A stretch of DNA of 64,000 bases from an uncultured Candidatus Binatia bacterium (GCA_965200965.1 OZ241744.1:2112001-2176000), one strand, 5' to 3'; counted from the stretch's first letter, positions 2,867-10,195 are shown. Numbers and translations: made by a program. Notes: generated by a model not told the origin, from the sequence alone.

Positions 2867-3771
2867 AACGCGATCTGGTCAGCATCAGCGACCTTGAGCC
2901 GGCTGAGCTTGACACGATCTTCTCCCTGGCCCGGCGACTCAAGCGTGACCGCCAGGCCGGGCGGCCGCATCCGCTGCTGAGCGGGAAGACCCTGGCAATG
3001 ATCTTTGAGAAGCCCAGCCTGCGCACCCGGGTGACCTTTGAGGCCGGCATGGTGCAGCTCGGCGGCTATGCGGTGTATCTGGCCCGGTCAGACATCGGCC
3101 TTGGTACGCGCGAATCCCCGACCGACGTGGCCCGCAACCTGTCGCGCTGGGTCGATCTGATTATGGTCCGCACCTTCTCGCACGAGAGTGTGCTCGAACT
3201 CGCCCGCCAGGCGACGATCCCGGTTATCAATGGCCTGTCGGACCGTGTCCACCCGTGTCAGATTCTGGCCGACTGTCTGAGCCTGATCGAACAGCGCGGT
3301 CGGCTCGACGGGCTGCGCATCGCCTTTGTCGGCGACGGCCATAACATCGTCAACTCGTGGCTGAATGCAGCCGCCAAGCTGCCGATTGCCTTTCGGCTGG
3401 CCTGCCCGCCGGGCTATGAGCCGAACGCCGAGGTGCTGGCCGCGGCGCGGCAAGCCGGGGCCGACATCCAGATCAGCCACGCGCTGCACGACGCGGTGGC
3501 CGGGGCCGATGTCGTCTACACCGATGTGTGGACCAGCATGGGTCAGGAACAGGAGCGCGCGGCTCGCCAGCGGGCGTTCAGTCCCTACCAGGTCAACGCC
3601 GACACCCTGGCGCTGGCCAAGCCCGAGGCGCTGGTCATGCACTGCCTGCCGGCCCACCGAGGCCAGGAGATCAGCGCCGAGGTCCTGGACGGCCCGCAGT
3701 CCATCGTCCTTGAGCAGTCCGAAAACCGCCTGCACATCCAGAAAGCCATCATGGTCTGGCTGCTCCAGTAG
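2863..3771 (+). CDS. argF: Ornithine carbamoyltransferase
   Basis: FEKPSLRTR, HPCQ, DVWTSMGQE, HCLPAHRG, QSENRLH. Confidence 0.97.
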   Translation: MKRDLVSISDLEPAELDTIFSLARRLKRDRQAGRPHPLLSGKTLAMIFEKPSLRTRVTFEAGMVQLGGYAVYLARSDIGLGTRESPTDVARNLSRWVDLIMVRTFSHESVLELARQATIPVINGLSDRVHPCQILADCLSLIEQRGRLDGLRIAFVGDGHNIVNSWLNAAAKLPIAFRLACPPGYEPNAEVLAAARQAGADIQISHALHDAVAGADVVYTDVWTSMGQEQERAARQRAFSPYQVNADTLALAKPEALVMHCLPAHRGQEISAEVLDGPQSIVLEQSENRLHIQKAIMVWLLQ

Positions 3772-3782
3772 CCCCCGGTCCG
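3771..3782 (+). repeat. Left 12-bp direct repeat (att core or target duplication)
   Basis: GCCCCCGGTCCG starting at the last base of the argF TAG; identical copy at 8925-8936. Confidence 0.85.
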
Positions 3783-3852
3783 ACAGCACCCGGCACAAAA
3801 CAGCCCGTCTTGCACAGGAAAGCAGTATGCTGATAGATTGGCTTTAAGGATG

Positions 3853-3926
3853 AGGCCCCGGTGGGAATTGAACCCACAATAACCGCTTTGCAACAACGGA
3901 TGCCTTTACCAATGGGCGACGGGGCC
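3853..3926 (-). tRNA. Atypical tRNA(Cys)-like gene with ambiguous anticodon (GCA in a 9-nt loop or UGC in a 7-nt loop)
   Basis: Reverse complement: GGCCCCG TC GCC CATTGGTAAA GGC A TCCGTTGTTGCAAAGCGGT TATT GTGGG TTCAATT CCCAC CGGGGCC T. Perfect 7-bp acceptor stem, perfect T-arm, U8, D-loop GG, U73 discriminator; CCA not encoded. Confidence 0.85.
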
Positions 3927-3951
3927 AAAACGAAGTACGGCCTGCTGTGTG

Positions 3952-4587
3952 TCAGACAGCGGGCCGTACTGCTAGAAGTTCTCTCTTCTTCTTCGCATAA
4001 ACCCCCAATCGAACCCCTGCTGCCTTCCTTGACATCTCGAACGTTTTGGAAACGACAGTCGGCGATAGCCCCCCTCGCTCTTCAAGGATTGCGAGACCTT
4101 TAGCGGGAGCAAGCAAGGCGGAGGCAAAGGCATCTGCCTGCCATTCCGTATCCCGATACACGGGAAACTTTGGCCAACTGCCACGCATCAACGCCACCAT
4201 CTTCCTATGTGGAATTTCGGCGAGCTTGATGAGCAGGTCGGAGTGTAAAACGATGTGGCCGACCTCGTGCGCAAGAGTAAGACGCGCACGCGGGTTCTTG
4301 TGTTCCAGAGCCGAATATGTCTCCTCAGACAGTGTGACGATTATTTGCCGCTCACTTGGATCATACCGGGTCAGGGCTTCAACCCCGGCAGGTAACGGCT
4401 TGACCTGATAATCAAGCTGCACCCCACATCCAGCGGCGTAGGCATCGAGTTGCTCAAATAACGGTACGCCGGGGAGAGCTTCCGTTGGTTTGTTGACCGG
4501 CAGGAGAGCGGTCCTAGCCAGGGCCGCCGCTTCCTCGATATCCGCGTAACTGCGGGGAGAGGTTGGAAATCCAAGCTGTCTGCTCAC
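3952..4587 (-). CDS. ImmA/IrrE family Zn metallopeptidase
   Basis: RARLTLAHEVGHIVLH (HExxH), EWQADAFASALLAP, C-terminal HTH-like segment; start overlaps the XRE stop (GTGA). Confidence 0.9.
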   Translation of the reverse strand: MSRQLGFPTSPRSYADIEEAAALARTALLPVNKPTEALPGVPLFEQLDAYAAGCGVQLDYQVKPLPAGVEALTRYDPSERQIIVTLSEETYSALEHKNPRARLTLAHEVGHIVLHSDLLIKLAEIPHRKMVALMRGSWPKFPVYRDTEWQADAFASALLAPAKGLAILEERGGLSPTVVSKTFEMSRKAAGVRLGVYAKKKRELLAVRPAV

Positions 4588-4946
4588 TCTTCGATCCTCC
4601 TTTCTTCCCCCTTCAATACGCGCTCGATCTCTTCCAACTTCTCCGGTGACAGGTCTTCCCAGCTTCTCAGCAGCGAAGCTCCGACTTCTCGGTGTTTGGG
4701 CGTTGGTGTAGCTGAAAGCTCATATCTCCCTCTGCTCTGCTCTGCGGCGATGATGACATCAAACGGGTCTTGACCGAGGGCTTTCGCCGCTCTCTCCAAA
4801 ATCTCAACGCGGGGCGGCGGACGGTTGCCACGCTCAATGTCTGAGATGTACGGAATGCTGAGGTCGAGCTTGCGTGCAACATCTCCCATCGTCAGCCCCG
4901 CTTCCTTACGCCAGCGACGAAATTTGTGTCCGAATTCCTGGCTCAT
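4584..4946 (-). CDS. XRE-family helix-turn-helix repressor
   Basis: FGHKFRRWRKEAGLTMGDVARKLDLSIPYISDIERGNR; GGAGGAGG SD before the ATG at 4946. Confidence 0.92.
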   Translation of the reverse strand: MSQEFGHKFRRWRKEAGLTMGDVARKLDLSIPYISDIERGNRPPPRVEILERAAKALGQDPFDVIIAAEQSRGRYELSATPTPKHREVGASLLRSWEDLSPEKLEEIERVLKGEERRIEE

Positions 4947-4994
4947 AGCCTCCTCCCTCCTGTGGGTTATTCCAATCAACGTCTGTCTGAGCCC

Positions 4995-5022
4995 ATATTA
5001 CGCAATTCAGCGGAATTGTCAA
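4995..5022 (-). promoter_or_regulatory. Putative sigma70 promoter of xre-immA with a palindromic operator between the boxes
   Basis: Minus strand TTGACA-16 nt-TAATAT; inverted repeat CAATTC-AGCG-GAATTG at 5003-5018. Confidence 0.6.
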
Positions 5023-5139
5023 CATGGGTTGCCCCACATGATTTCTCGGTTTATGCTTCTGGGCCCCTCAGACAAGACAAGCTGGGGGAGACACCCGTGC
5101 TTTGGGCGGGAACAATTTCCTAGCCGTGTGAGGTTCAAA

Positions 5140-7677
5140 TTGCCTAAAAAGTCCAGAGGAACGACGAAGATTCAGAGCTACGCGGTTGATAAAGCGTCCG
5201 GCCAGCTCATCTCGGCTGGGGCAGAAGAGATCGACGCGACACAACCCCTGCTCGAAATACTCATCAACGAAGCCGGGTGGAAGCCGGCTCAGATTGTTTC
5301 TCGCCCGCGCCAATGGCGAGTGTCAGCTGCACCTTCTGGGAAGCGAATTTGGCCTGTTGACGTTGCCCTCTTCGATGCTCCGACATCCGCGCGTGATCCT
5401 GAACACCTCCGTATCATCTGCGAATGCAAACGGCCTGATGTTGATACAGGAATTGAGCAGCTGAAAATCTATCTTGATCGTGAACCCCACGCGCGGGCTG
5501 GCCTTTGGTTTAACGGTATTGAACACAAGATCGTTTACAAAACTGCTAATGGCTACGATCTCGCACCGGATGGCACACCGATCCCCACACCGACCGATCC
5601 ATTATCTTCTCTTGAGCACCGTGTCCTTACTTTTCCTGACCTGAAGCGTGCTCCTTCCCTAGTCCCTCTCTTTCGCCGTATCCGCGACCGGCTTGCGACC
5701 CTCGATAGAAATGTCAACAGAGACGAAGAGATTTTACCGGATATCTCGTTTCTTCTTCTTCTAAAAATCCGAGATGAGCAGGATCATCGTTTCACTCCAT
5801 CAAAGCCCTTGGCGTTCCAGATTGACGAGAATGTGTCTAGGACCGCGGAAAGAATAAAGGACTTGCTAGAAAATGAAATCAAAAAGAATGCTACGCTGTT
5901 TGGTGCAGAAGAAAGAGAAATTCGGTTTCAAATTGACGACGACAGTATCTATTACATTGTCGAGAATCTTCAAAACTTCCGGCTTCTTAGCAATGATAGC
6001 GACGCAGTAGCTCAGGCGTTCCAAGTTATCAGGGGAAAAGCATACAAGGGAGAAGAAGGGCAATATTTTACTCCCCCTTCTGTCGTTCGGATCGCTGTCG
6101 CAGCGGTATCTCCTGGACCCGAGGACCGCGTGATAGACCCAGCCTGTGGGAGCGGATCTTTTCTCGCAGCTTCTCTTAACAACGTTGTCGAGCGTTTGAA
6201 GGCCCATTATGGAACTGATGCTAGTTCCATCGCCCTTGCCCGGCGGGATTGGTCCACTACTCAACTTTTTGCCATAGACAAGGACGCTGTTTCAGTACGG
6301 CTGTCGAAAGCATACCTTTCAATGCTTGGGGACGGTAGCACTCATGTCTTTAAGGCTGACTCAATTCGCAAATCGGTATGGAGTTCCGCCCTTGATGCTA
6401 CCATTCAAGACGGAGCGTTTACTATCTGTGTCACTAATCCTCCTTTCGGGACAAGACTAAAAGTTCCGAGCCACATTTGTAGGCGGGAAGACTACGAACT
6501 TTCCCGTACTATGAAGCGAAATAAGATGACTGGTAAGTGGCGGCAAACCGGAGAGCACGAATCTCGGGATCTAGGGTTGCTTTTTCTTGAGCGGAGTATT
6601 CGTCTCCTTGCTGAGGGAGGGCAATTGGCCATTGTCCTCCCCGACACTTATCTTTTTTCAGATTCTTATGCGTGGCTTGTCCAATGGCTTGCTCAGTGGA
6701 AAATTACTCATTCTATCAATGTTCCAATTGAAACATTTGAACCACATTGTCGGGCAAAGACGAGCATCATCGTCCTTGAGAAGAACCCACCTCCAAAGAA
6801 TCACACCATTATCGGATCACTTTGCGAGACGTACGGAGAAGATAAGCATGGGAAGTCCCGATATAAAATTGTCAACGGGAGAGTGACCGAGGACATTGAT
6901 GACGAGATGCGGGAAGCCTCGGAGTTGATTCGTGATCCAACAGCACCCGTTTCAAAACTGAAATTCACTTTTTCTCAGAAGGAAGCCGTGGAACGTGGCG
7001 TCCTCGTGGCGTCGTTCTGGTGGAGAAAACCTTATCTTGAAGCCCTGAACGATTTCGCCAAGGCGAACGGTTGCGACCTAGTGCCACTGAGAGAAGCAAT
7101 TGACTGCGCGGACATCGAAATTCTGGAAGGACACGGAAGCCCCAGTTCCCATTACAAAGGAAAGGGAGAAGTTCCGTATGTCAAAGTGGTCGATATTAAG
7201 AATTGGCGTGTCAATGAGAATTCCAAGTATTTTATGCCTCGGCAGATTGCTGAAAGATACACCGCAAAACGTCCTCTCAAGCCCTATGATTTATTGACAC
7301 CCACAAGAGCAAGCAAGAATATCGGCCTTTTTGGCGTCGTTATGCCTTAGCAGACCGATATGATCCTAACACGGGAGATTTTTATCTGGCGATTAAAGGA
7401 TGAAGGAAAACTGCTGGACCGTTGGCTTTTCCTGGCACTTGCCTCATTGAAAGTTGTCCATGAGCAGTTCAAATACTTGGTACTGATGCAAATGAACAGA
7501 GAAGACCTTGGTAATCGGTACAGAGATCTCCTTCTACCCATTCCCAGAACCCCGAAAGCTCGGGAGAAATGGTCCGGGCCAATTCGGCGATATTTTGAAG
7601 CGCTCACACAAGCTCGGAAGACTTACGAGGAGATCGGAAAGGAACTCGACTCTTCAATGTTTGTAGATCGGCCATGA
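5140..7677 (+). pseudogene. Type IIG/type I-like fusion (PD-(D/E)xK nuclease + m6A MTase + TRD) interrupted by in-frame TAG at 7348-7350
   Basis: Likely TTG start at 5140 after GAGGT. VDVALFD...ECKRP, GQYFTP, DPACGSGSFL, NPPF. An HsdS-like TRD (GEVPYVKVVDI...IGLFGVVMP*QTD...LLLPIP) continues in the same frame to TGA 7677. Confidence 0.8.
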
Positions 7678-7750
7678 TAATCTGAATCAGAACTTTCTCT
7701 GTCGAAGAGAATGGCTGCCGTTGAGATACCAAACAGTTCAAGGACCTTGC

Positions 7751-8869
7751 TCATAACAGCGAAGCGCACCTTTCCTGCGCAAGTTCCAGGTATTCCCTGG
7801 AGATATCAATCCCGACCGACTTGCGGTTGAAATTTCTCGCTGCCAGCAGCGTCGTACCAGTCCCGCAGAAGGGATCAAGGACAACGCCAGTGGCGGGACA
7901 TGTCGCCAGGATGGGGATTTTGCACAGGTCTTCTGGATACGGAGCGAAGTGCAGACGCCGCTTTTGGGTGTCTTCCGGGATGATGTCCCACACATCCGCC
8001 GGCTTGCTGCCCCTGGGATGGTATCGCAGAAAGTAGAAACCCTTTTCCTTCAATTCCCTGGCTCTGCCGGACACCAGTTCGGAATCAGAGTGGGTTGTCC
8101 GCTGTTGGCCGCGAATGATCATACGAAAATCTGCCAGCTCTCCCTTCTCAATCGCGCGCAGCATCCCTTCAAGCTGGGTGAAAGCGGCCCGCCTTTCCTC
8201 TGCACTCAAGGCCGTTGAGAGCTCAATCTGACGCTTGTAGCGAACCCCGGAAACGCCCGTTGCAGACACCACCGCCCCTTTTCTGATCTTTGCCTTCTTT
8301 GGGTGAGAGCGGATGGCATCCACATCGTAGTAATAGCCCTTGGGGCTCTTCACAAAATGAAAAACGTTTTCATACACATTCCGCAGCTTGTCTGGGGCAG
8401 TGTCAGGGCCGCCTTTGACCTTGTTCCATATGACGCTGTTGCGGATAATCCAGCCCTGCTGATCTGACAGGGCAAAAGCCAGCCTCCAGGGAATCCCCAA
8501 CAAACCTTTTTTCTGATAGCTGTCTCCGATATTCAGCCAGAACGATCCGGCAGGCTTCAGTATCCGGCGCACTTCGCCGAAGACCTGGCACAGCCGGGCG
8601 ATGAACTCCTGAGGGCCTTGTTCGGCCCCGATCCCCCCATTCCGGTAGGCCCGTTGCCCCCAATACGGCGGGCTGGTCATACAGCAGTCAATCGTTTCGT
8701 CGGGAAGCTCCCTGAGCACTGCCACTGCGTCACCGAGCAGCAGCAGGGGGGAAGCGGTCCCGGTAGCGAGGTATGACAGGAGACGACTTCGGTATCCCGA
8801 CGAAATAAGGGGCAGGGATTCGCCCAACGGCAAGCCAGGACTGGATTGTTGCGCCCGAGATGTCGTCAC
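7751..8869 (-). CDS. Beta-class DNA methyltransferase (SPPY, probably m4C)
   Basis: TSPPYW precedes HFAPYPE and DPFCGTGTT. Likely GTG start at 8869 after GGAGGT; the ORF-track extension to 9178 overlaps argG and is spurious. Confidence 0.9.
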   Translation of the reverse strand: MTTSRAQQSSPGLPLGESLPLISSGYRSRLLSYLATGTASPLLLLGDAVAVLRELPDETIDCCMTSPPYWGQRAYRNGGIGAEQGPQEFIARLCQVFGEVRRILKPAGSFWLNIGDSYQKKGLLGIPWRLAFALSDQQGWIIRNSVIWNKVKGGPDTAPDKLRNVYENVFHFVKSPKGYYYDVDAIRSHPKKAKIRKGAVVSATGVSGVRYKRQIELSTALSAEERRAAFTQLEGMLRAIEKGELADFRMIIRGQQRTTHSDSELVSGRARELKEKGFYFLRYHPRGSKPADVWDIIPEDTQKRRLHFAPYPEDLCKIPILATCPATGVVLDPFCGTGTTLLAARNFNRKSVGIDISREYLELAQERCASLL

Positions 8870-8924
8870 AGCGGCCCTCACCTCCATATGTATAAGCACC
8901 ACCCCTGTTTGTACAGGAGGAGAT

Positions 8925-8936
8925 GCCCCCGGTCCG
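8925..8936 (+). repeat. Right 12-bp direct repeat
   Basis: GCCCCCGGTCCG identical to 3771-3782. Confidence 0.85.
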
Positions 8937-8965
8937 TTGTCTTGCCGGCCGCGGCGTGCTAGGCT
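8937..8965 (+). promoter_or_regulatory. Putative argG promoter directly outside the island
   Basis: TTGTCT-17 nt-TAGGCT with a TGn extended -10. Confidence 0.45.
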
Positions 8966-8995
8966 GCCGGTACTCCTGTGAGCGAGTGTTGTGCT

Positions 8996-10195
8996 GTGGC
9001 AGAGAGACAAAAAGTAGTGCTGGCCTACAGCGGCGGGCTGGATACCTCGGTCATCCTGCGCTGGCTGATTGAGACCTACCGGTGTGAGGTTATCGCCTTC
9101 TGCGCCGACCTGGGGCAGGGCGAAGAACTCGACCCGGTTGAGGACAAGGCCAGACAGGTCGGGGCGAGCGCGATCCATATCGACGACCTGCGCGAAGAGT
9201 TTGTGCGCGATTTTGTGTTCCCCATGTTTCGGGCCAACGCCTTTTATGAGGGCGGCTACCTGCTCGGCACCTCAATCGCCCGGCCGCTGATCGCCAAGCG
9301 TCAGATCGAAATCGCCCGCCAGGAAGGCGCGGGGGCGGTTGCCCACGGCGCGACCGGCAAGGGCAACGACCAGGTGCGTTTTGAGCTGAGCTACTACGCG
9401 CTCGAGCCCCATATTCGGGTGATTGCGCCGTGGCGGGAATGGGAGATGAAGTCGCGCACCGAGCTGATCGCCTATGCCGAAAAATACGCCATCCCCATCA
9501 CCGTCAGCGCGGACAAGCCGTACAGTACCGACCGCAACCTGCTGCACATCAGCTTTGAGGGCGGTATGCTCGAAGACCCGTGGCAGGAACCCGGCGAGGA
9601 CATGTTTGTCCTGTCGGTATCGCCCGAGCGGGCACCGGATAGACCGGAGTATGTGGAGATCGACTTCGAGGCCGGCAACCCGACCGCGGTCAACGGCCAC
9701 ACCCTGTCGCCGGCCCGGCTGCTGGCCCGGCTCAACGAACTCGCCGGCAAACACGGCATCGGCCGGGTTGACCTGGTTGAAAACCGCTATGTCGGCATGA
9801 AATCGCGGGGCGTGTACGAAACCCCGGGCGGGACAATTCTGCACATCGCCCACGGGGCGGTTGAATCGCTGACGCTCGACCGGGAAGCGCTCCACCTGCG
9901 CGACTCACTCGTTCCGCGCTACGCCGAGATGGTCTACTACGGCTACTGGTTCGCCCCGGAGCGCGAGATGTTGCAGGCGGCCATTGACGAGTCGCAGACC
10001 AACGTCACCGGCACGGTCCGCCTCAAGCTGTATAAGGGCAACGTCATTGTTGTCGGTCGGCGCTCGGCCAAGACCCTCTACAACCCGGAGGTGGCGACCT
10101 TCGAGGCCGGCGGAGACTACCGCCAGGCCGATGCCGAGGGGTTTATCCGGATCAACGCCCTGCGGTTGCGGCTGCGGGCGCTGGCCCAGCGCTGA
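8996..10195 (+). CDS. argG: Argininosuccinate synthase
   Basis: [39 protein letters not shown]. Start GTG 8996 or 8978. Confidence 0.97.

Follow-up and report, generated by a model that had tools for sequence, protein, structure and literature searches.

A hybrid-identity tRNA gene behind a CapH/CapP-like repressor-peptidase pair in a composite argF-argG island of a Candidatus Binatia bacterium

Results

Genes between argF and argG

We analysed a stretch of 64,000 nucleotides (the window) from the single-contig 3.62-Mb genome of an uncultured Candidatus Binatia bacterium (GCA_965200965.1 OZ241744.1:2112001-2176000), in which an island separates argF from argG. Read from argF to argG, the island carries a tRNA gene, a gene for an M78 peptidase and a gene for an XRE-family repressor, all on the minus strand, followed by a nuclease-methylase fusion gene on the plus strand and an N6/N4 DNA methylase gene on the minus strand. 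The regulator is of a known kind and the island, which a first reading from the sequence alone (the sequence-only reading) had framed as one defence unit, is a composite at an ordinary hotspot. The unexplained part is the hybrid tRNA, which recurs in the effector slot behind related peptidases.

A tRNA with a cysteine-type acceptor and an alanine anticodon

The tRNA gene (3852..3926, minus strand) was identified with ARAGORN, which labels it Ala(UGC), and scores 47.1 bits in Rfam. The minimum-energy fold is predicted to be a cloverleaf (z -2.1); one extra base precedes the anticodon stem and CCA is not encoded. Its loop reads U33-UGC-A, and its acceptor is of the cysteine type, with G1-C72, G2-C71, C3-G70 and U73 as in the host tRNA-Cys and without G3:U70. 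The genome has Ala(UGC) and Cys(GCA) tRNA genes of its own.

Hybrid tRNAs were found 7-137 nt behind the peptidase gene and on the same strand at four loci, namely the window, one locus of another genus (contig L013 of genome G047) and the two metagenome contigs L023 and L081. All four copies share G1-C72, G2-C71, C3-G70, U73 and a U-N-G-C-A loop, and G3:U70 occurs in none of them. The canonical tRNA-Ala elements G3:U70 and A73 are thus replaced by C3-G70 and U73 in 4/4 copies, and the canonical tRNA-Cys elements U73 and G1-C72 are present in 4/4. The GCA that a canonical tRNA-Cys carries at positions 34-36 of a 7-nt loop is displaced by 1-2 bases in every copy. Likewise, the 8/4 or 9/3 branch and the long variable arm of allo-tRNAs and selC* tRNA-Cys were not seen; the branch is 7/5 and the variable loop short.

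Position 34 is U, C (in X5, one of four runs from two studies that were compared) or G (L081), and G35, C36 and A37 are constant. Since only these three bases occur at position 34, the anticodon after U33 is, as read from sequence, always an alanine one, with GCA at 35-37. A cysteine register would place C at position 37 of the L013 tRNA, and the constant A37 together with the free position 38 would be in favour of the alanine register. The loop pattern alone is no proof of design, because a one-base insertion into a cysteine loop would give the same pattern automatically.

In an alignment of three copies, 7 of 20 stem pairs were changed on both sides and 96.7% of the cells pair, the structure being derived from the same three copies. 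Model R1, which was built on three copies, gave tRNA-Cys the highest score among the host tRNAs (62.5 bits), followed by tRNA-Ala(UGC) with 50.8 bits. The five tRNA differences in run X5, among those listed, break no stem pair. Between the window and G047 the tRNA is 95% identical, compared with 72% for the peptidase. A need for this tRNA among the island genes found no support: the five invariant cysteines of the restriction-modification (R/M) family described below are encoded as Cys.

Recurrence of the peptidase-tRNA linkage

The linkage of peptidase and tRNA, on which the sequence-only reading had built, recurs in L013/G047, L023 and L081. The tRNA lies 26 nt behind the peptidase gene in G047, 137 nt behind it in L023 and 7 nt behind it in L081. 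The peptidases of L023 and L081 are 52% and 49% identical to the one in the window. L023 additionally carries a divergent SmaI-family nuclease gene and a convergent methylase gene, and a divergent restriction gene is present at three of the four loci. In a quick peptidase tree, the window, L013 and L023 fall on one branch, and the position of L081 was not resolved.

The L023 locus has two further features. A single frame of 329 aa (L023:3280-4269, plus strand) contains XRE and peptidase as a fusion, and a second irregular tRNA stands in tandem (L023:4490-4564, plus strand), with a GCC anticodon, A73, C at position 33 and A at position 8; its closest host tRNA is Lys(UUU).

The exact tRNA pattern had no match in metagenome contigs, and searches of plasmids with the tRNA and with the peptidase gave no match either. 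Three pattern scans of viral sequences returned 0, 3 and 0 matches, the three being ordinary cysteine tRNAs in a phage array; the phage contigs concerned (L185-L187) hold dense arrays with 16-17 tRNA calls in 2.4 kb. A phage search with the tRNA retrieved a 28-nt match to the T-arm only. Relaxed ARAGORN pseudo-calls behind other peptidases were dismissed as noise: 9 of 104 control windows gave similar calls, and none of the pseudo-calls was recovered by model R1 from 97 sources, a set that leaves aside the viral loci L106-L181.

The repressor-peptidase pair

The peptidase gene (3952..4587, minus strand) encodes an ImmA/IrrE-type M78 zinc peptidase (PF06114) of 211 aa with HExxH and a distal Glu. 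Its zinc site, H107, E108, H111 and E148, is invariant in all 16 aligned sequences. The adjoining gene (4584..4946, minus strand) encodes a CapH-like XRE-family helix-turn-helix (HTH) repressor of 120 aa (Pfam HTH_31/HTH_3). The PADLOC search proposed in the sequence-only reading returned capH for the repressor (E 6e-12) and a partial capP match for the peptidase, limited to profile positions 23-154 of 242. Pfam detected no C-terminal GAF domain in the peptidase, which ends at 211 aa. In L013 (6823-7448, minus strand) the G047 peptidase is a pseudogene with a 1-bp deletion and a stop, next to an intact R/M gene; the window shows the opposite state.

A sigma70-like promoter (4995..5022, minus strand; 10/12 promoter match) precedes the XRE gene, and a 6-4-6 palindrome (5003-5018) lies between its hexamers. 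The palindrome is kept in L013/G047 with one mismatch and is likely to be the operator.

For the neighbourhood of the peptidase family, 80 loci were kept from 151 confirmed metagenome loci and 79 from 83 viral loci, and 51 hand-picked neighbouring proteins were scanned with Pfam. Among these proteins, the same-strand slot downstream of the peptidase was occupied by SMODS in five loci, by ThiF with or without DUF6791 in three, by ThsB in one and by TIR in one; divergent neighbours included AbiE in two loci, SmaI and DUF4365. With defence genes lying downstream or divergent, the peptidase family can be classed as a defence-associated switch like CapH/CapP, the downstream slot of which often holds an effector. 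At L040, L042, L056, L061, L066, L067, L070, L074, L025 and L059 we observed cyclic-oligonucleotide-based antiphage signalling (CBASS), Thoeris, E1/E2-like and TIR genes co-oriented downstream, and AbiE pairs in divergent orientation.

Control elements around the tRNA

A putative terminator-like hairpin (3927..3970, minus strand) lies directly before the tRNA. Its loop contains the stop codon of the peptidase gene, and a U-rich tail extends from it to tRNA position 1. The hairpin is kept in L013/G047 with compensating changes. In the stretch 4270-4405 of L023, read by eye, a comparable hairpin and a U tract stand ahead of the tRNA, and a frame of 27 codons ends in the hairpin loop. Given the hairpin in the window, it is doubtful whether the tRNA is simply a product of the regulator transcript, as the sequence-only reading had supposed.

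Downstream of the tRNA, a promoter-like site read by eye (TTGCAC-18-TAGATT; 3810..3839, plus strand) points back and may drive antisense transcription into the tRNA. Its -35 and -10 hexamers are kept in L013 although the flank is only 54% identical; the site was not among the matches of a strict promoter scan. Over 55 deduplicated loci of the family, the best promoter scores averaged 6.6 on the antisense strand, 4.4 on the sense strand and 4.8 after shuffling. In view of the approximate frequencies in the promoter matrix and the non-independence of related loci, the p-values for the antisense strand (about 1e-5) overstate the significance. The antisense matches mostly start 75-135 nt behind the peptidase stop codon, and the segments that follow fold into two hairpins ahead of small basic open frames. 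Rfam gave no family for the hairpin segments of 20 loci. In many family members among loci L024-L092 and L183, what lies 20-140 nt behind the peptidase stop codon looks like an undescribed antisense RNA cassette composed of a back-pointing sigma70-like promoter, two hairpins and a small basic frame.

The divergent restriction-modification gene

Gene map, Pfam and PADLOC bear out the R/M fusion that had been described opposite the HTH and IrrE/ImmA-type pair. The gene (5140..7677, plus strand) encodes a single-chain, type IIG-like nuclease-N6 methylase-specificity protein, assigned by Pfam, PADLOC and alignments, which combines a PD-(D/E)xK-like motif with motifs of an N6 methylase and a C-terminal region. 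D73 and E95-x-K97 are invariant, N6_Mtase was matched, and the homologue in L016 matched HSDR_N_2. The top match of a profile search was RM.BsaXI (E 6e-25). Foldseek with a model of the L013 homologue gave BpuSI as the top match (E 5e-10), the model being weak (predicted local distance difference test score 54, template modelling score 0.25).

An in-frame TAG at 7348-7350, which the sequence-only reading had missed, interrupts the gene. Homologues have Trp at this position (7/7 aligned), and three of the four runs compared (X3, X4 and X5) have TGG, with the cassette at the same locus. In the fourth run, which is identical to the window, the codon is TAG. An intact C-terminal target-recognition region was not found in this strain, given the TAG and a C-terminal piece that had no Pfam match. 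Judged from these sequences, the nuclease arm is broken in this strain by a strain-specific nonsense codon. Recoding of the TAG was rejected, as other strains have TGG and as no pyrrolysine or amber tRNA was present among 52 ARAGORN calls in the genome. The R/M gene of G047 is intact.

Among eight R/M homologue loci, XRE/peptidase genes occur at one and a second methylase at none, and the R/M gene is therefore to be seen as exchangeable cargo. The notion that it is a regular target of the switch did not stand, given this single locus and the broken copy in the window. The same holds for the convergent methylase as a second methylase of the system or as partner of the IIG-like gene: it is absent from 8/8 of these loci and belongs to an older insert.

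A two-layered insert at a hotspot

Several properties that the sequence-only reading had ascribed to the island were confirmed. argF ends at 3771, where the left copy of a perfect 12-bp direct repeat (3771..3782, plus strand) overlaps its stop codon; the right copy (8925..8936, plus strand) is an exact match and, by comparison of the junctions with congeners, the native one. By chance, a shared 12-mer turned up in 148 of 20000 draws of paired 100x100-nt windows spaced 5.1 kb apart. The interior is richer in A and T, with a G+C content of 44-57% over most of its length vs 59-69% in the flanks. The congener G003 has the predicted empty site, with a single repeat copy (one mismatch), the same promoter-like sequence and argG. 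This promoter-like sequence (TTGTCT-17-TAGGCT; 8937..8965, plus strand) was read by eye and is not among the strict promoter scan matches; a similar one precedes argG in 7/7 congeners. A foreign cassette without integrase is supported, as the five island proteins scanned gave no recombinase family match; nor were there integrase or excision genes, a trait of ImmR/ImmA-type integrative and conjugative elements (ICEs) or prophages, among the island proteins.

Mobilisation in trans by means of the 12-mer, on the other hand, is not indicated. The 12-mer occurs six times in the genome (about 2.4 expected). Furthermore, the module recurs in G047 at a different site, and no terminal repeat above 7 nt was found there.

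In seven congeners, the argF-argG interval is empty once (G003) and holds other inserts of about 0.5-9 kb in the remaining six, among which are a further methylase-specificity fusion, an IS1595 transposase, an HTH/Gp49 pair and genes unrelated to these. Because six congeners carry other inserts, argF-argG is, by this comparison, a hotspot of cargo and gene exchange. In the individual congeners (L198-L204; G001, G002, G004-G007), the cargo comprises an 892-aa N6 methylase-specificity fusion with IS1595, the HTH/Gp49 pair and genes for a penicillin amidase and an AAA regulator.

The N6/N4 methylase gene (7751..8869, minus strand; 372 aa, PF01555) is common to G001 and G007. G001 has this segment at the same site with 84% nucleotide identity over 7719-8816, and G007 has a 5' remnant of the methylase at the same site (92% over 8441-9100) with the same right junction. 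In G001, a partner gene on the same strand follows the methylase; in the window only its first 12 codons remain (7719..7754, minus strand; same start and longer open frame in G001), so that an internal junction lies at about 7719 and the methylase is orphaned. The G001 partner gene is unannotated and split over two contigs (L204:3-293, minus strand; L203:99-467, plus strand). A likeness to NotI-family nucleases is tentative; Pfam and the atlas gave no support for it. The XRE-peptidase-tRNA-R/M module in G047 (80% over 3845-7683) comes without the methylase.

From these alignments the insert reads as two-layered cargo, consisting of an older methylase layer and an incoming XRE-peptidase-tRNA-R/M module. 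Given the methylase layer common to G001 and G007 and the truncated partner gene, the module has replaced the partner. The claim of a single, precisely bounded unit is not borne out, and one event between attachment repeats is ruled out by the shared right part and the junction at about 7719. We infer that cargo was exchanged without an integrase, by recombination in the flanking core genes.

Discussion

Relation to known systems

As in CapH/CapP, an HTH repressor and an HExxH zinc peptidase are encoded divergently from a defence gene in the window, L013 and L023. The island peptidase differs from CapP in lacking the GAF domain. The operons associated with CapH/CapP are all described as lying on the opposite strand (Lau et al., bioRxiv 10.1101/2022.04.27.489752), whereas the peptidase family of the island often has co-oriented downstream cargo; the word tRNA is absent from the main text of that paper. 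Co-oriented repressor and short peptidase genes are shared with ImmR/ImmA of ICEBs1 and phi105, as far as described in the same report. The island differs in having neither integrase nor transfer genes and in carrying a tRNA in the slot behind the peptidase.

With the type IIG enzyme BpuSI and the type IIB enzyme RM.BsaXI, the R/M protein shares a single chain with a PD-(D/E)xK-like N-terminus, N6-methylase motifs and a C-terminal region; the copy in the island is interrupted and the fold model behind the likeness to BpuSI is weak.

Among tRNAs, G-1 tRNA1 and allo-tRNAs likewise pair an acceptor identity with the anticodon of a different amino acid, have the synthetase triplet at 35-37 and occur as irregular tRNAs in tandem near conflict genes. 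They are His- or Ser-bodied, often 8/4 or 9/3, and lie near toxin-antitoxin genes, whereas the island tRNA is Cys-bodied and 7/5 and stands behind a peptidase switch, opposite a restriction gene. Mukai et al. (PMC5389517) describe missense allo-tRNAs that were lethal to E. coli, irregular tRNAs near toxin-antitoxin genes that were charged by way of a synthetase triplet at 35-37, and G-1 tRNA1 species that were charged without decoding in E. coli. U73 and G1-C72 are tRNA-Cys identity elements in that paper, and GCA is given, with U73, as the main element for cysteinyl-tRNA synthetase (CysRS). tRNA-ProX/ProRSx likewise has a dual identity with an alanine anticodon, and tRNA-ProX is described as mistranslating and slowing growth in the available parts of PMC10404621 and PMC11415595. 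It differs in its Pro body, its dedicated synthetase gene and its context; the island has no synthetase. In the open-licence literature of PubMed Central and bioRxiv, we found no description of a Cys-bodied tRNA with an alanine anticodon behind an ImmA/IrrE peptidase, and the supplements of PMC5389517 could hold such loci.

Possible function of the hybrid tRNA

We tentatively favour, at a little less than an even chance of being right, a normally silenced missense tRNA that a CapH/CapP-like switch sets free to back up restriction; beyond the anatomy, the steps are conjectural. By analogy with CapH/CapP and ImmR/ImmA, the repressor would bind the palindrome in the shared promoter region, stress or DNA damage would activate the peptidase, and the repressor would be cleaved. 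Loss of the repressor would then allow expression of both nuclease and tRNA. Until then, the tRNA would be held off by the repressor, by the terminator-like hairpin, which requires read-through, and by the back-pointing promoter. As the peptidase stop codon lies in the hairpin loop, a trailing ribosome could open the hairpin. The tRNA would be charged by CysRS via U73, G1-C72 and the GCA at 35-37 and be read as NGC on the ribosome, so that cysteine would be inserted at alanine codons. Mistranslation of this kind would slow down a stressed or infected cell, or kill it, and in this way back up restriction. That the tRNA itself is the regulated defence effector, Cys-charged, Ala-reading, silenced by repressor, translation-sensitive terminator and antisense transcript, and released by a damage-sensing peptidase so that it poisons translation in parallel with the restriction enzyme, is a more specific claim that we consider rather unlikely. 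That one component is often broken would agree with a costly system, but also with plain decay.

Several observations weigh against the missense tRNA. Its support consists of gene anatomy and sequence, and the closest precedent, G-1 tRNA1, is charged without decoding in E. coli. The linkage is rare: of the loci that have at least 120 nt of DNA behind the peptidase, 2 of 73 from metagenomes and 0 of 69 from viruses show it, and it occurs, among related genomes, in 2 of 55 by DNA, in 2 of 301 class genomes by pattern and in 2 of 151 by model. The branch that unites three of the loci has an SH-like approximate likelihood ratio support of 86 only and five other members without DNA context, and the tRNA label does not cluster significantly on the quick tree (4 changes; 500/500 shuffles as low). 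The peptidase is broken in L013 and truncated in L081. Between the window and G047, the conservation of the tRNA is matched by that of the 5' end of the R/M gene (93%). In a crude alignment of the tRNA bodies with self excluded, host tRNA-Cys ranked first just for L023 and L081, fifth for the window and outside the top five for L013. Tertiary positions are irregular, as in decaying genes (U15 in the window, an altered T-loop in L081), and the 8-nt loop of the L081 tRNA is a better fit to frameshifting.

Alternatively, the RNA might be a functional tRNA mimic that takes no part in decoding. Charged or uncharged, it might divert an anticodon nuclease, CysRS or EF-Tu as a decoy, trigger the stringent response or serve as a processing signal at the regulator mRNA end. 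The stems are kept and the tertiary residues vary, the shifted-triplet precedent was, in the accessible text of PMC5389517, charged yet unused in translation, and the second tandem tRNA in L023 has C at position 33. The constant U33 and A37 and the restriction of position 34 to alanine anticodons suggest a constraint from decoding, however, and Pfam and PADLOC scans identified no anticodon nuclease in the island; we regard a mimic as unlikely. A neutral passenger, that is, a captured and decaying tRNA-Cys gene or an old attachment site at the module end, would accord with the position of the tRNA at the module edge, the lack of a remaining integrase, a broken component at three of the four loci and the rarity of the tRNA among peptidase homologues. 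Yet the tRNA is full length and faces outwards, the same odd register recurs in four loci with compensated stems between divergent copies, and the strain differences, among those listed, spare the stems, which makes a passenger improbable.

The true product might also be the opposite strand, namely the small antisense RNA of the family made of anti-tRNA, which might regulate the operon or pair with a host tRNA. The higher antisense promoter scores over the 55 loci and the two-hairpin segments point in this direction, and the window has such a site. At the tRNA loci, however, the scores are modest (6.7 in the window vs 5.8 shuffled; 4.7 in L023 vs 4.8), the hairpin carries its U-rich tail on the sense strand, and G-U pairs occur on the tRNA strand in all copies. 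We therefore give this explanation only a slight chance. Slighter still is that of +1 frameshifting by a cysteine tRNA whose enlarged loop would read the four-base codons UGCN. Such a tRNA would agree with the 8-nt loop of L081 and with the alignment of the other copies to host tRNA-Cys with two extra loop bases; on the other side, a normal loop of 7 nt can form in the tRNAs of the window and L013, the L013 tRNA has C at what would be position 37, and no island gene needs a frameshift or an alanine-to-cysteine change.

Hybrid-identity tRNAs as such are known, and their natural role has been tied loosely to toxin-antitoxin genes (PMC5389517) or to stress tolerance (PMC11415595/PMC10404621) in the accessible parts of these reports. 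Here, a hybrid tRNA stands where a stress switch of a known class has its effector, beside restriction genes and behind peptidases that are only about 50% identical. If the missense tRNA is indeed induced and causes mistranslation, CysRS would have to tolerate a shifted triplet, annotators would be mislabelling such genes as ordinary tRNA-Ala, and a tRNA would be a weapon of defence rather than its target or antidote.

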